Of a stretch of DNA of 64,000 bases, positions 25,685 through 34,865 are shown one piece after another. The position numbers and the translations under genes are program-made. Each line of letters starts with the position of its first letter. Position 1 is the stretch's first letter. Below the pieces are notes generated by a model. The model was not told the DNA's origin and searched no databases. It was given only the letters and a program-made list of their open reading frames with translations. The stretch is from an uncultured Gemmatimonadales bacterium (lineage in GTDB: Bacteria; Gemmatimonadota; Gemmatimonadetes; Gemmatimonadales; GWC2-71-9), in the NCBI GenBank assembly GCA_963842945.1, contig CAWJIM010000023.1, positions 448,001 through 512,000 on the forward strand, written 5' to 3'.

Positions 25685-26758
25685 ATGGCCCAGCTGGTAC
25701 TCGGCATCGAGACCTCCTGCGACGAGACCTCCGCTTCGGTGGTCCGTTGGGAGAACGGTGTTTCCTCCCTGGCTTCCCTGATCATCCTCTCTCAAGATGT
25801 CCATCGCATCTTCGGCGGGGTCGTTCCCGAGCTGGCCAGCCGCGCGCACGTGCAGGCCATCGGATCCGTGGTCGAGCAGGCGCTGAGAGAAGCCGGTCTT
25901 GGCTTTCCGGACCTGGATGGCATCGCCGTAACCGCCGGTCCCGGATTGGTGGGGGCTCTCCTGGTCGGAGTGATGTACGGCAAGACGCTGGCATTCAGTG
26001 TCGATCGCCCGCTGATCGGGGTCAATCACCTGGAGGGACACCTCTTCGCGCCCACCCTGGAAGATCCGGAGTTCGAGCCTCCATTTATCGGACTGTTGGT
26101 GAGTGGCGGCCATACCATGCTGCTCGACGTTCCCCAGTGGGGAGAATACCGCCTGCTGGGACAGACTCTCGACGATGCCGCGGGTGAGGCATTCGACAAA
26201 GTGGCCAACCTCTTGGGGCTGGGCTATCCGGGAGGAGCAGCGATCGAACGCCTGGCCCGGGAAGGGCAGCCCGGCCGCTTCCGCTTTCCCAGTCCCATGC
26301 TGCAGGAGCTCGATCGCGAGGGCGCTAACCGCTACGCCTTCTCCTTCAGCGGCCTGAAGACGGCAGTGCTCCGGACCGTTCGGGGCGACGCCAGCGGCAA
26401 TCACTCCACTTCCCCACCCAATCCGGCCGATGTCGCACGAGGATTTCAGGATGCTGCCATCCAGGTACTCGTCGCCAAGACGGCGCATGCGGTCGAGGCG
26501 AGTGGGTACGGCCGAGCTATGGTCGGAGGCGGCGTCGCCTGCAATCGCGCTCTGGTAGCCCAACTGCGAGCGCGACTGGCGGGACAAGCCCGGGTCAGCG
26601 TAGCTTCACCGCGGCTCAACACCGACAATGCCGCCATGATCGCCGCTGCGGGAGCCTGGAGGCTTGCCCGGGGCGAGCGGAGCGGCCTCGATCTCGAGCC
26701 TCGGGACGATCTGCCACTCCCTGGCTTGGCCTTCCACTTACCTGGATCCGTCACATGA
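25685..26758 (+). CDS. tsaD: tRNA t6A threonylcarbamoyltransferase TsaD
   Basis: GIETSCDET, GGVVPELASRAH, NHLEGH, SGGHT, DDAAGEAFDK, TDNAAMI. Confidence 0.97.
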   Translation: MAQLVLGIETSCDETSASVVRWENGVSSLASLIILSQDVHRIFGGVVPELASRAHVQAIGSVVEQALREAGLGFPDLDGIAVTAGPGLVGALLVGVMYGKTLAFSVDRPLIGVNHLEGHLFAPTLEDPEFEPPFIGLLVSGGHTMLLDVPQWGEYRLLGQTLDDAAGEAFDKVANLLGLGYPGGAAIERLAREGQPGRFRFPSPMLQELDREGANRYAFSFSGLKTAVLRTVRGDASGNHSTSPPNPADVARGFQDAAIQVLVAKTAHAVEASGYGRAMVGGGVACNRALVAQLRARLAGQARVSVASPRLNTDNAAMIAAAGAWRLARGERSGLDLEPRDDLPLPGLAFHLPGSVT

Positions 26759-27606
26759 CCATCCACCCGTTCATCATCCACCTGGGCCCGCTCGAGGTCA
26801 CGGGGTACGGGCTGATGCTGATGGTGGCCTTTCTGATGGGGGGCTGGCTGATCGCCCGCCAGCTTCGAGAGCGTCAACTCCGGGAGGAGTATGCCGCTGA
26901 CATTGTGGCCGCCGCCGTCATCGGGGGAATCATCGGTGCGAAACTCTGGTATGTCGCGCTCACCCGAGACCCCGGCGCCCTGTTCTCCCGGGGTGGACTC
27001 GTATGGTATGGCGGGTTCATCGGCGGAGCTCTCGCGGTGATGCTGAATGGCTGGCGCTTGAAGGTGCCCCTGCGATGGACCATGCAGGTCGCAGCTCCAG
27101 CATTGGCGGCGGCGTACGCGCTCGGCCGGGTAGGGTGTTTTCTGGTGAACGACGACTACGGAAGACCTAGCAATCTCCCCTGGGCGGTGCGCTTCCCCGA
27201 GGGGCTGCCGCCGTCGACTGCCGGAAATCTGCACCAGCTCTTTGGAGTGCCGATTCCGGCGGGCACCGACCCCTCCACGGTCCTGGCCGTCCATCCGACT
27301 CAGCTGTACGAAGTGGCGGCCATGCTGCTGGCCTTTGGCGTCTTGTGGGTCCTGCGGAAGCAGGGCAAGCCGGTCGGCTGGCTTTTCGGCTTATACCTGG
27401 TCTTTGCGGGAGTGGAGCGCTTCCTGGTCGAGATCGTGCGGGCCAAGGACGATCGTTTTCTGGGACCCTTCACCCTGGCTCAGCTGACCAGCGTGATTCT
27501 GGTGGCTATCGGAGGAAGCCTGCTAACGCTTTGGAGAACACGAGAGGGCCCGCTGCCCGGCTTCTATCTGGAAACTGGCAGGAAGCCCCCGCCGTCAAAG
27601 ATCTAG
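26755..27606 (+). CDS. lgt: Prolipoprotein diacylglyceryl transferase
   Basis: GGLVWYGG, GRVGCF, HPTQLYE, RFLVE. Confidence 0.95.
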   Translation: MTIHPFIIHLGPLEVTGYGLMLMVAFLMGGWLIARQLRERQLREEYAADIVAAAVIGGIIGAKLWYVALTRDPGALFSRGGLVWYGGFIGGALAVMLNGWRLKVPLRWTMQVAAPALAAAYALGRVGCFLVNDDYGRPSNLPWAVRFPEGLPPSTAGNLHQLFGVPIPAGTDPSTVLAVHPTQLYEVAAMLLAFGVLWVLRKQGKPVGWLFGLYLVFAGVERFLVEIVRAKDDRFLGPFTLAQLTSVILVAIGGSLLTLWRTREGPLPGFYLETGRKPPPSKI

Positions 27607-27752
27607 TCGCCTGCACAAGCACGTAAGCACAGACAGCTTAGTCCATTCCTCGAATTTCCGTACAGCATCTTTACGACTTTTTGCACTCCAGCACCTTCCC
27701 ATCTTCCCCGCTAAGTAACTCAGGCGTCGTTGCTTAGCCCAGATGAGCCAAA

Positions 27753-27768
27753 TGGCACTAGCCTTGCT
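27753..27768 (+). promoter_or_regulatory. Sigma54 (-24/-12) promoter
   Basis: TGGCAC-TAGCC-TTGCT matches the TGGCAC-N5-TTGCW consensus in an intergenic, comparatively AT-rich context. Confidence 0.8.
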
Positions 27769-27778
27769 TTACTAATGC

Positions 27779-27916
27779 CCGGGAAGCCCAAGGGCTTCAC
27801 ACGAAAGTGGTAGGTCGAAGAAGGGTGGAGCGGGCACTTCGGCCCGTCTCCGTAAACTCAGGGGGCGATCTACCACTCACTTACGCAAACGGCCCGTCAT
27901 CTGACGGGCCGTTTGC
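27779..27916 (+). ncRNA. Candidate sigma54-dependent structured small RNA (~135 nt)
   Basis: Hairpin GAAGCCC-AA-GGGCTTC (27783-27798). 12-bp stem AGTGGTAGGTCG/CGATCTACCACT (27806-27817/27866-27877) enclosing a GGAG-CGGGC/GCCCG-T-CTCC hairpin. Ends in a terminator. No translatable ORF downstream of the predicted TSS. Confidence 0.7.
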
Positions 27917-27920
27917 ATTT
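27885..27920. terminator. Intrinsic terminator, probably bidirectional
   Basis: Perfect inverted repeat GCAAACGGCCCGTCA-TC-TGACGGGCCGTTTGC followed by ATTT, between convergent units. Confidence 0.85.
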
Positions 27921-27933
27921 GCTCCGCGAGGCG

Positions 27934-28416
27934 TCAGGCTAGCAGATCTCGCTGGGCTACAATAATCCCGTCGCCGTCTGCATAAAGAAACGAGCCAGGG
28001 AGAAATGCCACTCCAGCAAAGGTAAGCGGGGTTCCTCGGGTGCCGGTTCCCTGTTTGCCGCTCCGGAGCGGTACGCTGTTGAGGGCCCGTATTCCGACCG
28101 GGATTTGACTCAGCTCCGCCGAGTCCCGTACGCTGCCATTGATGACCAGTCCCGCCCAGCCGTTCGCGTAAGCCACGCCGGCAAGCCGTCCCCCCACGAG
28201 CGCGCAACGACGCGAGCCGCCACCGTCGATTACGAGGACTCGCCCCCCTCCAGCGGTCTCCAGGATCTGCCGAACGAGCGCATTGTCCTCAAATACGCTC
28301 AGGGTCTCGATCGGGCCGCTGAACTTCGCCAGGCCGCCATACTCCCGAAACTCCGGCTGGGCAACCTGCACCAGCTCAGGGTAGCCATCGCACAGATCAG
28401 CGGTGGTGAACTCCAC
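27934..28416 (-). CDS. rraA: RraA family protein (HMG aldolase / RNase E regulator family)
   Basis: TADLCD, FEDNALV, VLVIDGGGS, GSVRD, ADGDG. Confidence 0.93.
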   Translation of the reverse strand: MEFTTADLCDGYPELVQVAQPEFREYGGLAKFSGPIETLSVFEDNALVRQILETAGGGRVLVIDGGGSRRCALVGGRLAGVAYANGWAGLVINGSVRDSAELSQIPVGIRALNSVPLRSGKQGTGTRGTPLTFAGVAFLPGSFLYADGDGIIVAQRDLLA

Positions 28417-30546
28417 TCAGCTCTTGCGAGAGCGCGACTCAGGCGCGTCGGTGAGGTTTCCCTTCATCCGCTCGACTTCGGAGCGCATCTCGCTCAAGTC
28501 CGCCTCCATCCGCTCGAGAGAGCGGAGCAGCTCCCGGCTTGCCTCCGGGGGAACAGGGGCAGGGATCGCTAGCGGCGGTTCCCGGCGGAGCGGCTCGGGT
28601 GGCGGTGATCCAGCCCGATGGCGACGACGGGGCTCTATGAGAAAGGTCCAGGCAAGGGCCAGGATGAGAAGAGCGACCAGGACCCCCTGCGCCAGCAGCG
28701 ACTCGACGGTGGGGTAGATACCCAGCGCAGGGAGCTCGGGGCGCACCAACGACGATGGTGGTCGAGATCAGCCCCCCTCCTGTAGCTCGGCCACAGCTTT
28801 CCCGGCAAAAACAAATGCCATGTAGTACAGGAATGCGCTGGTCACCCCGAAGAAGGGCTTCAACGGAAGCCGCAGGCCGAACCGGTTGATGGCCAGGTAA
28901 ACCACCGACCATGACCAGTGACCCGAGCAGGATGCCGGCCAGGATCGGCATGGTGGCGGCAGGTGAGCCGCCAGTCACGAACAGAGCCTTGTAGAAGAGC
29001 ACGGTCTCGAAGCCCTCGCGGTACACCGCCAGAAACGCCGCCGACGCGAGCGCCAGACCGGAGCCGCTCGTGAGCGCGTCCTGCACCTTGCTCTTCACGA
29101 AGTGGTTCCACTTGGCCACCTCCATTTTCGAGAGCAGCCAGTAGCTCACATAGAAGAGCACCACGGTAGCGAGGGCCATGGTCAGGCCCTCCAGCGCCTC
29201 TCGTTTGGCGGAGGTCAGGTGAAAGATGGTCTCCAGCGCAAACGCGGTGAGCAGGCTGGCCGCGGCCGCGGCACCGACTCCGATGTGAATGTCGCGCTTG
29301 CGATGGGCCGCTCCCATCTTGGCCAGAAAGGTCATCAGGGCGCCCACCAGCAGAATTGCCTCGAAGCCTTCCCGCAGCAGAATGACAAACGATTGTACGA
29401 ACAGGTTTACGTGCGGACGGCTGGTCGGCCAGTGTCCGCTCGGCGTTCTCCAGATCGGCGTCGAGCTGCCGGCGAATTCGGTCCAGCTCCGCGCCGGTGG
29501 CTCCTCCGGCCACTCGGGTACGCAGCGACGCAAATCCGGCCTCCAGGTCTGCGGCCAGCCCGGGATTCTTGGCTCGGACCGACCGCTCCACCTGCTCGAA
29601 CGTCATGTACGCGTCGAAGGCCCGTGTGCTCGCCGAGGTGTCACCGGTCCGAGCCAGGGCATAAACCGATTCAATCTGGGCTCGCACCTCGGTGAAAACC
29701 CGGGCATCGGCAGCGGCGGTGCGCATCCGCCCGAAATCGACGGACGGCTGCAACCCTGGCGAGACCGGTTGCTCCGTCATTCCGCTGCCCCAGAGCGGCG
29801 AGCAACTGGGTATCGGACATGCGGCCGGTACTTCCAAAGGACTGAAGCGCGGGGGGAACGCTCCCCGAGTCGTTGGGGCAGGCGAAGTACACTGGCATAG
29901 AGTGCAACGGCCCAGCGGTCCTCTGCCGACAACCGGGTCTCGAAGGCCGGCATGGCCGTCCCGACGACGCCGATGCTCACTCGGCGGTAATAATCCAGGG
30001 GCGATTGATCTCGGAGCGCGGCGCGCATCCGACGAGGTCGGCGGGTTTGGGATCCATCCCTTTTGCCAGTGGCCCATCGCCGCGGCCAAGGTCTCCGTGA
30101 CAGGAGGCGCAGTTGGTCCGGAAGACCTCGGCGCCCCGTGCCAGCGACGGCGCCTCAGGTGGAACCTGATCGAGTGGGACGCCGAGCGGGGCGAAGCGAG
30201 CTGTCAAGCCGGCTTACGCGGGCGTCCAGCGAATCCGGAGAGCCAGCAGACTCACGAGGGCTATCAGCGAATCGATACGGCTGATAGTGCGGGAGGCGGA
30301 ATTTGGCGGGCAAGCAGGGCCGCGGATCGCCGAGACTCCTGGAGGAACAGCCGAGCTTCGTCCACTTCGGCCTGAGACACGATCCGGCCGTTGACGATCC
30401 CAACTCGGTATTCCTGTGACGGCCAGTTGCGCCGTAGCCGCGACTCGGCGAACAGCAGGCGCCACGTCGGGCGTGGAATCGGGAGCTTGGAGTGGAGCGA
30501 CAAGGGTGGACGCAACCAAGGCGGCCGCGCTGAGAATCATTTTCAT
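28417..30546 (-). CDS. Cytochrome c-FTR1 family iron permease fusion, broken by many indels
   Basis: Fragments across frames: signal peptide MKMILSAAAL, CASCH heme motif, GTAMPAF, two REGFE motifs, TM helices. Confidence 0.85.
30531..30545. promoter_or_regulatory. Putative Fur box overlapping the start of the iron permease
   Basis: TGAGAAT-C-ATTTTCA matches 12 of 14 positions of the 7-1-7 Fur consensus TGATAAT-N-ATTATCA. Confidence 0.65.
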
Positions 30547-33462: not shown

Positions 33463-34809
33463 CTAGGCGGTGATGTTGTAGCGTTTGATCTTGTTGATCA
33501 GCGTCGCCCGCGAGATGCCAAGCTCGACAGCCGCGCGCGTCCGGTTGCCTGCGTGGTGCTTGAGCGTGCGCTCGATGTGCTGGCGCTCGAGGTCTTCGAG
33601 ACTGAGCGGCGTGTGCCGCCGATCTCCCAGTCCTGGCCGGGCCCGGAACTCTCCCGGTAGGTGCTCCACGCTCACGGCCGGCTGCCCCCGCCCCAGGATA
33701 AGTGCCCGCTCCAGGACGTTGCGCATTTCCCGAACGTTTCCGGGCCAGGGATACGCCAGCAGCCGCTCCAGCACTTCACTCGACAGGGCGCCAGGGCCCT
33801 CGGGCAGCTCCGACTGCAAGTCCCCCATGATTCTGGTCAGCAGCGCGAGCCGGTCCTCCCGGGACCGATCCCGCACCGCCGGAAGCGTTAACGGCATGAC
33901 GCTGAGGCGATAGTAAAGGTCTTCGCGAAAAGCCGCGGTTTCGACTTCGGCTTGAAGATTCTTGTTGGTGGCTGCAACCAGGCGCACGTCCACCGTGATC
34001 TCGCGAGTGCCGCCGAGACGGCGAAAGGTCTTCGTTTCCAGGACCTTCAACAGCTTTGGCTGTAACTCGGGGGCCAAGTCACCGATCTCGTCCAGAAAAA
34101 TGGTTCCCCGGTCTGCAATCTCGAAGAGACCCTGCTTGCGGTCTTTGGCGTCGGTAAACGCGCCCTTTTCATGACCAAACAGCTCGGAATCGAGAAAGGT
34201 GGCGTTGAGTCCCGCGCAGTTCACCTCCACGAACGGGGCCTTGGAACGCGGGCTGAGGTCGTGGATCATCCGGGCCACCCAGCCCTTGCCGGTTCCACTC
34301 TCACCATTGAGGAGCACCGTTGTCCGCTCGCTCTGGGCCAGCAGAGCCACCTGATGGGCGAAGTCCTGCATGCCCGAGGAGGCACCCAGGGAATCGAGCC
34401 CATGGCCCGGGGCGCTCTGTACCAGCAAGGCTTCATTGATTCGGCGGAGCCGCGCCTTGTCGGCCACCCGGGCAGTGGCGGCGGCGAGGTGCTCCATATC
34501 CACCGGTTTGGTCAGGAAGTTTTCGGCACCCATCTGCATGGCGCGAACGGCGGTGGCCACGTCGGTCTGCCCGGTCAGGAGGATCACTGAGGCGTCCCGC
34601 TGGCGCAGGTGCTCCAGCACCTCCATTCCGTCCATTCCGGGCAACCCCAGATCCAGGATGACAACTTCTGGACGCAGACGATCGAAGGTGGCGAGTCCGG
34701 CCTCGCCGCTAAGCTCCCGCGTTACTTCATAGCCGAAGCGCTCGAAGTAGTTCCCTATGCTGCGTAGAACATCGACATCGTCATCGATCAGCAAGACCGA
34801 GCCGGCCAT
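33463..34809 (-). CDS. NtrC-family sigma54-dependent response regulator (REC-AAA+-Fis HTH)
   Basis: LLIDDD, LDLGLPGMDG, GESGTGK, SELFGHEKGAFTDA, WPGNVRE, GISRATL. Confidence 0.96.
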   Translation of the reverse strand: MAGSVLLIDDDVDVLRSIGNYFERFGYEVTRELSGEAGLATFDRLRPEVVILDLGLPGMDGMEVLEHLRQRDASVILLTGQTDVATAVRAMQMGAENFLTKPVDMEHLAAATARVADKARLRRINEALLVQSAPGHGLDSLGASSGMQDFAHQVALLAQSERTTVLLNGESGTGKGWVARMIHDLSPRSKAPFVEVNCAGLNATFLDSELFGHEKGAFTDAKDRKQGLFEIADRGTIFLDEIGDLAPELQPKLLKVLETKTFRRLGGTREITVDVRLVAATNKNLQAEVETAAFREDLYYRLSVMPLTLPAVRDRSREDRLALLTRIMGDLQSELPEGPGALSSEVLERLLAYPWPGNVREMRNVLERALILGRGQPAVSVEHLPGEFRARPGLGDRRHTPLSLEDLERQHIERTLKHHAGNRTRAAVELGISRATLINKIKRYNITA

Positions 34810-34865
34810 GATGAATTCCCGAGGCTGAGGGGTGGAGCCCCCCAAAAATTAGTCACTCGCGATGG

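Follow-up and report, generated by a model that had tools for sequence, protein, structure and literature searches.

The gap between lgt and rraA

Behind lgt in the genome of an uncultured Gemmatimonadales bacterium lies a gap with a promoter-like sequence that points towards a convergent gene, which raises the question of what such a promoter might serve. The window analyzed here is the 64,000-nt stretch of contig CAWJIM010000023.1 (positions 448,001 to 512,000; assembly GCA_963842945.1) that contains this gap. Pfam matches identify the flanking genes as lgt (26755-27606, forward strand) upstream and an RraA-like gene (27934-28416, reverse strand) downstream. An earlier note, made from the sequence, had proposed that the gap holds an unannotated small RNA gene with a sigma-54-type -24/-12 promoter, a 5' hairpin, a 72-nt rod and a strong intrinsic terminator, and that the next gene is convergent. 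The Pfam match bears out the last point, and the promoter, 5' hairpin and rod are all present in the sequence and its RNAfold structure. We have little doubt that the gap holds an uncatalogued, stand-alone structured RNA gene of ~140 nt, the likely product of which is a regulatory RNA; promoter conservation, covariation and the lack of an Rfam match all support the earlier proposal on this point.

The sigma-54-type promoter, TGGCAC-TAGCC-TTGCT, occupies 27753-27768 on the forward strand (TGGCAC 27753-27758, TAGCC 27759-27763, TTGCT 27764-27768). Its geometry predicts a transcription start at 27779-27781, 12-14 nt past the GC of the -12 element, where a conserved C-GGGAAG begins in relatives. 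On the same strand the MFE fold contains a 5' hairpin (27780-27803), variable in sequence with its structure kept, followed by the rod (27806-27877), a conserved core of 72 nt delineated by covariation and fixed loop letters. The rod consists of a basal stem of 12 bp (one of them G-U), an AAGAA/AGGGGG internal loop, a GGGU/ACUC helix, a GUAA bulge, and an upper stem closed by a hexaloop, with the apical part reading CGGGC-ACUUCG-GCCCG. A pyrimidine-rich single-stranded linker (27878-27884, forward strand), which is UCACUUA in the window and CUCUCUAC in most relatives and might act as an anti-Shine-Dalgarno-like seed, leads into the terminator hairpin and its short U-tail (27885-27922, forward strand, MFE fold). 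RNAfold gave -79.6 kcal/mol for 27779-27920 (z = -7.9; 0 of 200 shuffles were equally stable), and the predicted fold is composed of the parts described. The terminator proposed by the note is present as a 14-bp hairpin (27885-27916), and 12 nt separate its U-tail from the convergent gene's stop codon. Two reservations about a strong intrinsic terminator are that the U-tail is short (AUUUGC) and that a terminator-scan rule returned no site at this position in the window.

A 52-codon GTG ORF (27807-27965) was considered as a source of a small protein and rejected: the bulge and loops of relatives carry indels of 1-3 nt, and the pattern of conservation is not that of codons. Beyond the RraA-like gene, the ORF of an FTR1-family permease (28439-29533, reverse strand) overlaps a 409-codon ORF without a Pfam match (28860-30089, reverse strand). 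In relatives, tblastn matches to FTR1 are split over two frames, and a frameshift or a misjudged gene boundary may be responsible.

A search of the whole window against Rfam 15 at the gathering threshold gave no match, a scan of 27600-27960 with E-values up to 10 placed no family on the rod, and Rfam searches of four loci of divergent members likewise placed nothing on the rod. The only partial match, sX6, covers the terminator part alone and scores 26.6 bits against a 40-bit cut-off. In line with the earlier note, which had proposed this comparison and did not recognize the RNA as SRP RNA, 6S RNA or a riboswitch, no Rfam family matches the RNA gene. SRP RNA (RF00169) has no match at the locus and is found elsewhere in the genome (G000:C2:306633-306732, 45.5 bits), RF00013 (6S RNA) does not match the locus, and no Rfam riboswitch family matches. 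6S RNA resembles this RNA in being an irregular hairpin with a strong promoter (here the consensus sigma-70-type promoter found in one genus), but it is ~180 nt long, has a large central bubble and is near-universal, whereas the rod spans 72 nt, lacks a large bubble and occurs in seven genera only. Neither this genome nor any of 71 genomes of the family gave a match to RF00013; as such matches are lacking in genomes with and without the RNA alike, the two do not have a complementary distribution. A kink-turn reading of CGAAGAA was also set aside, since the opposite strand lacks the required G-A step. A literature search found no paper on such an RNA in Gemmatimonadota. Taken together, the comparison gives good support to treating the predicted RNA as a new family, although of a kind already known, that of stand-alone sRNAs driven by sigma-54.

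Covariation, invariant loop letters and distribution

The RNAalifold consensus of 113 sequences contains 36 pairs, 19 of them with compensatory changes. Within the rod itself, 99.5% of cells pair across 61 diverse rods and both sides change in 13 of the 24 pairs, values that were reached in 0 of 500 shuffles; slid controls gave at most 5 such pairs. Both arms of the terminator covary (e.g. CG/UA at 57/56), as do the arms of the 5' hairpin when the alignments are inspected by eye. More distant genera rewrite the whole basal stem, for example from GUGGUAGGUCG/CGAUCUACCAC to GUCCCAGGACG/CGUUCUGGGAC.

The internal-loop letters GAAGAAGRGU/CUCAGGGGGC are fixed throughout, including the loci with rewritten stems. 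Part of this invariance is by construction, because the loci in two of the alignments (A1 and A3) were selected with those letters. The letters are also unchanged in samples free of this bias, comprising 24 loci found by blastn and 23 found by the model. Rod identity to the window sequence ranges from 70 to 97% with a median of 91%, and Lgt protein identity drops to 53%. The linker is 0-10 nt long over 134 sequences, with a mean pyrimidine content of 84% and a variable sequence.

The RNA gene is single-copy in this genome. Within the genus, blastn located it in 20 of 24 genomes, each time with lgt on one side and rraA on the other. An exact scan for the core pattern in species genomes returned at least 119 stretches, with ~130 estimated. 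Among the 80 stretches listed, 77 carry titles of Gemmatimonadota, Gemmatimonadales or Gemmatimonadaceae MAGs, two have Actinomycetota or Actinomycetes titles and one has an incomplete title. One of the actinomycete-titled stretches (L102) has neither the promoter nor the neighbouring genes and looks like a chance match. The other (L104, CAWCDA010000035.1), titled 'uncultured Actinomycetes bacterium', contains the complete element with its promoter, and here either the bin is probably mislabelled or the contig misassigned.

Of 61 genomes sampled from the window's family, 23 gave scores of 84-161 bits with a model of the full RNA. Full-model matches of 24-32 bits in the order's other two families align to the terminator only and were discarded. 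With a model of the rod alone, 26 strong matches and one marginal match were obtained in 71 genomes of the family, the strong ones in seven genera, and none in 79 genomes from 11 other families of the phylum. These tallies include one unpublished genome (G101), which accounts for one genus-level match and was left out of the alignments and models. As judged by these searches, the RNA belongs to soil bacteria of seven genera only, all in one Gemmatimonadales family. In five genera of that family without the RNA, the gap after lgt holds neither the RNA nor a sigma-54 motif; all five keep tsaD and lgt, and four also have FTR1 within the 1.5-kb flank. In one RNA-lacking genus (L191, G046:C5, ~2330-2520) the lgt-FTR1 gap is filled by two inverted arrays of a 7-nt repeat (GAGAGGT/ACCTCTC) that flank a GC-rich hairpin, giving a long imperfect palindrome.

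Genomes carry at most three copies of the RNA. Two of the four genomes of one genus have tandem rods, in which a single sigma-54 promoter is followed by two rods and one terminator. Three copies are found in one genome (G113), where the third lies away from lgt, between a PD40-repeat gene and grpE; these surroundings gave no functional hint. In three draft genomes of the genus (G017 C224/C211, G022 C373/C88, G014 C475/C419) contigs end in or beside the RNA, probably because a near-identical core among co-occurring species breaks assembly graphs.

The promoter and the region upstream

GGCAY-N5-NTGC stands no more than 110 nt ahead of the core, most often at 62 nt, in 117 of the 118 related loci that have at least 75 nt of upstream sequence. 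The GG follows a T in 115 of these 117 loci, and C-T stands before TGC. The spacing within the promoter is exact across loci while the surrounding spacer diverges to the point that it is not alignable. The motif is present in 9 of 9 loci of five further genera and in 0 of 5 genomes of one genus, g20. Within this 4.3-Mb genome TGGCAY-N5-TTGC occurs at 14 sites against 14.6 expected from base composition, which is chance frequency, and the significance of the match therefore comes from cross-genome conservation alone. The genome encodes rpoN (G000:C1:64885-65361, 216 bits), and a promoter scan found no sigma-70 promoter in the window. The earlier note had suggested looking in relatives for conservation of both the stem and the -24/-12 site: blastn and RNAalifold show that the helices covary, and the site is kept in all genera but one. 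We think it probable that the predicted sigma-54 promoter operates in this genome. About ten of the 14 genomic sites, a list that includes G000:C21:65236 on the reverse strand, have no long ORF spanning them and are candidate sigma-54 promoters in their own right; one of them shares an upstream GCTTAGCC word with the RNA locus.

All five genomes of genus g20 have TTGACA-N17-TAnnnT in place of the sigma-54 motif, ~38 nt before the rod (spacing by eye) and followed by a 5' hairpin; its distance from the rod matches that in the sigma-54 loci. By its sequence, the predicted promoter of this genus is a consensus sigma-70-type promoter that replaces the sigma-54 one. It follows from the swap that the RNA forms a separate transcription unit whichever type of promoter it has, and that sigma-54 control is neither intrinsic to the function of the RNA nor a defining property of the family. 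In another genus, lgt ends in its own terminator ahead of the RNA's promoter.

Upstream of the promoter, a 6-N5-6 palindrome (TGTCAA-N5-TTGACA, with up to 2 mismatches allowed) has two fixed positions, counted from the GG to its centre: about -155 (47 of 117 loci) and about -85 (24 of 117), compared with about one in shuffles in each case. Sites of NtrC-type activators would be expected to have such a geometry, and the two positions are candidate activator-binding sites. The window itself has divergent versions of both. At palindrome A (27593-27609), which overlaps the lgt stop codon, CGTCAAAGATCTAGTCG has 4 mismatches and fails the threshold, and at palindrome B (27659-27675), centred at -87 from the GG, CGTACAGCATCTTTACG has 5 mismatches to the family consensus, a variant that is common to the nearest relatives. 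Each could be an activator-binding site. A regulon search of this genome returned 47 matches to TGTCAA-N5-TTGACA, none of them 40-220 nt from a sigma-54-like site.

Closer to the promoter, 28 of 83 loci have CAANNNNTTR somewhere in the searched region, and 25 of the 83 have it at one fixed place, -15 to -17 relative to the GG. The window retains TTGCTTAGCC (27730-27739), a remnant of the AACGACTTA motif, which lies ~16-17 nt upstream of the GG and resembles the right half of an IHF site. A complete IHF site upstream of the promoter was rejected, since the full IHF consensus occurs in only 3 of 83 loci.

A gene for an NtrC-type enhancer-binding protein with receiver, sigma-54 interaction and HTH_8 domains (33463-34845, reverse strand) lies 5.6 kb from the RNA gene. 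The gene is in synteny in all 8 RNA-bearing genomes examined, three of which have the sigma-70-type promoter, and is full-length in 2 of 5 RNA-lacking genomes too. We regard its product as a weak candidate for the activator of the RNA gene. The gene has no adjacent histidine kinase and sits between an NlpC/P60 gene and a gene for a YegS-like lipid kinase beside TamB.

A proposed mechanism and its alternatives

Searches for the proteins that accompany known regulatory RNAs were negative within the genomes covered: a Gemmatimonadales sample of 41 genomes, 26 of them of high quality, yielded no Hfq, nor did this genome, and CsrA (PF02599), ProQ and RapZ (PF03668) were not found in this genome, which is 86.9% complete. 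From the architecture of the rod we infer a protein-binding module, because the letters that are conserved occupy both sides of an internal loop within covarying helices, duplication involves the rod as a whole, the linear unpaired part is variable, and the chaperones for seed pairing were not found. We propose that an enhancer-binding protein on the upstream palindromes would activate sigma-54 polymerase, that transcription would start at ~27779-27781, and that the 5' hairpin and terminator would stabilize the RNA. The 72-nt covarying hairpin would then present its invariant purine-rich internal loop to a partner, most probably a protein, for which the rod could be a decoy, sponge or adaptor in the manner of GlmY, CsrB or 6S RNA, as opposed to Hfq-type seed pairing. 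To this explanation as a whole, a stand-alone ~140-nt RNA with a predicted sigma-54 promoter and an invariant loop presented to a partner, we assign a probability just short of even, roughly 0.45. A further suggestion, which we make with considerable doubt, is that the rod is the recognition module of an undescribed riboregulatory system, which either senses a small molecule or serves an RNA-binding regulator as decoy or adaptor, and whose output has been conserved while its input was rewired between sigma-54 and sigma-70 among genera.

The RNA could instead be a classical trans-acting base-pairing sRNA, in which the linker or the rod loop pairs with purine-rich ribosome-binding sites and the rod serves for stability. 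Sigma-54-driven RNAs of this type exist, Qrr being an example. The linker is suited to the part in its pyrimidine content and in often reading CUCUCUAC or CCUCCCA, both anti-Shine-Dalgarno-like, and it directly precedes the terminator, as in many seed-bearing sRNAs. Seeds, however, are usually the best-conserved part of an sRNA, whereas this linker is the least conserved part, and the invariant letters are instead found on both strands of an internal loop enclosed in a helix. Hfq and ProQ, moreover, were not found in the searches described above. The complements of the loop letters are not enriched genome-wide (4 and 8 other sites, against ~2 and 8 expected), and pairing with the two glmS leaders is not notable. 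On balance we consider base pairing in trans unlikely, but it deserves to be kept in mind. An aptamer that senses a ligand or ion, acting in trans like an orphan riboswitch, or some other undescribed structured RNA, would account for invariant internal-loop nucleotides within covarying helices, which are a hallmark of aptamers. The tandem rods in one transcript recall cooperative tandem aptamers, which are known. We nevertheless give this reading little weight: no gene in the same direction follows, the terminator comes at once, no alternative antiterminator pairing is evident by eye, and no Rfam riboswitch matches.

A structured 3'UTR of lgt, serving as an mRNA-stabilizing or processing element with the -24/-12 match incidental or otherwise used, would fit the placement of the RNA, which directly follows lgt in every case, and in the window no terminator can be seen to separate lgt from the element. 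RNA libraries bear on this reading as well. Twenty public runs hold part of the stretch, 11 of which are on record as RNA (soil and rhizosphere metatranscriptomes), and contigs from four RNA runs cover the RNA, either from 27763 to 27920 or over the core only. An insert from one RNA library starts at 27763, which is 16 nt ahead of the predicted start. Among the contigs, the ends of which do not mark transcript ends, one extends 187 nt upstream of the core, in keeping with a lgt 3'UTR, and another ends 78 nt past the terminator; the core that species have in common also breaks assembly graphs. Because contigs extend beyond the predicted RNA unit, read-through from lgt or carried-over DNA may be their source. 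Against the 3'UTR stand the promoter, whose exact spacing 117 of 118 loci retain despite a diverging spacer, and the consensus sigma-70-type promoter at the same distance in one genus, as well as the genus in which lgt has its own terminator ahead of the promoter. The third copy in G113 lies away from lgt, and RNA-lacking genera keep the lgt-FTR1 arrangement without the RNA. We therefore find it very improbable that the element is a part of the lgt message.

Among known sRNAs, the Qrr RNAs of Vibrio (LuxO/sigma-54) are similarly sigma-54-driven, end in a terminator and occur in one to several copies. They differ in needing Hfq and a conserved seed that is single-stranded; for this RNA, the 41 genomes gave no Hfq and the conserved letters lie in the internal loop. 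The sponges CsrB/RsmZ and CrcZ, of which CrcZ is sigma-54-dependent, share with this RNA a repeatable structured module, fixed loop letters and a lineage-variable copy number. This RNA differs from them in having no GGA hairpin loops or CA-rich repeats, and the CsrA and Hfq genes were not found. A CsrB/RsmZ-type sponge was rejected, as CsrA was not found in this genome and the loop letters GAAGAAG/CAGGGGG are placed inside an internal loop.

The closest likeness in layout is to GlmY and GlmZ of Enterobacteriaceae (RF00128, RF00083), which are likewise stand-alone RNAs of similar size with a sigma-54 promoter that some lineages have swapped for a sigma-70 one. GlmY/GlmZ have upstream activator sites and an IHF site, and this RNA has candidate palindromes and an IHF-like half motif. 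GlmY acts as a protein decoy, the same mode that we propose here. The differences are that neither this RNA nor its divergent members match the Rfam models, that RapZ was not found in this genome, that pairing with the glmS leaders is not notable, and that this RNA belongs to another phylum and has another fold, one long rod with a purine-rich internal loop. The promoter swap at GlmY/GlmZ is described in PMC3045617, according to which some lineages exchanged sigma-54 for sigma-70 promoters. Up to now, GlmY/GlmZ are the documented instance of an sRNA gene changing its type of promoter, and the family described here would add a case outside Proteobacteria. In soil, Gemmatimonadota are abundant, yet to our knowledge their RNA biology has hardly been studied, and the family offers a concrete entry point, with the rod leading toward the partner and the promoter toward the signal.

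A GlmZ-like role for this RNA was rejected, as RapZ was not found and pairing with glmS did not rise above background: duplex energies with the two glmS leaders fall within those of 47 other leaders. The two glmS genes are both full-length (G000:C21:239694-241517, 828 bits; G000:C19:594829-596652, 826 bits) and may be paralogues within the 4.3-Mb assembly or may reflect a second organism in the bin, for which 6% contamination is estimated.
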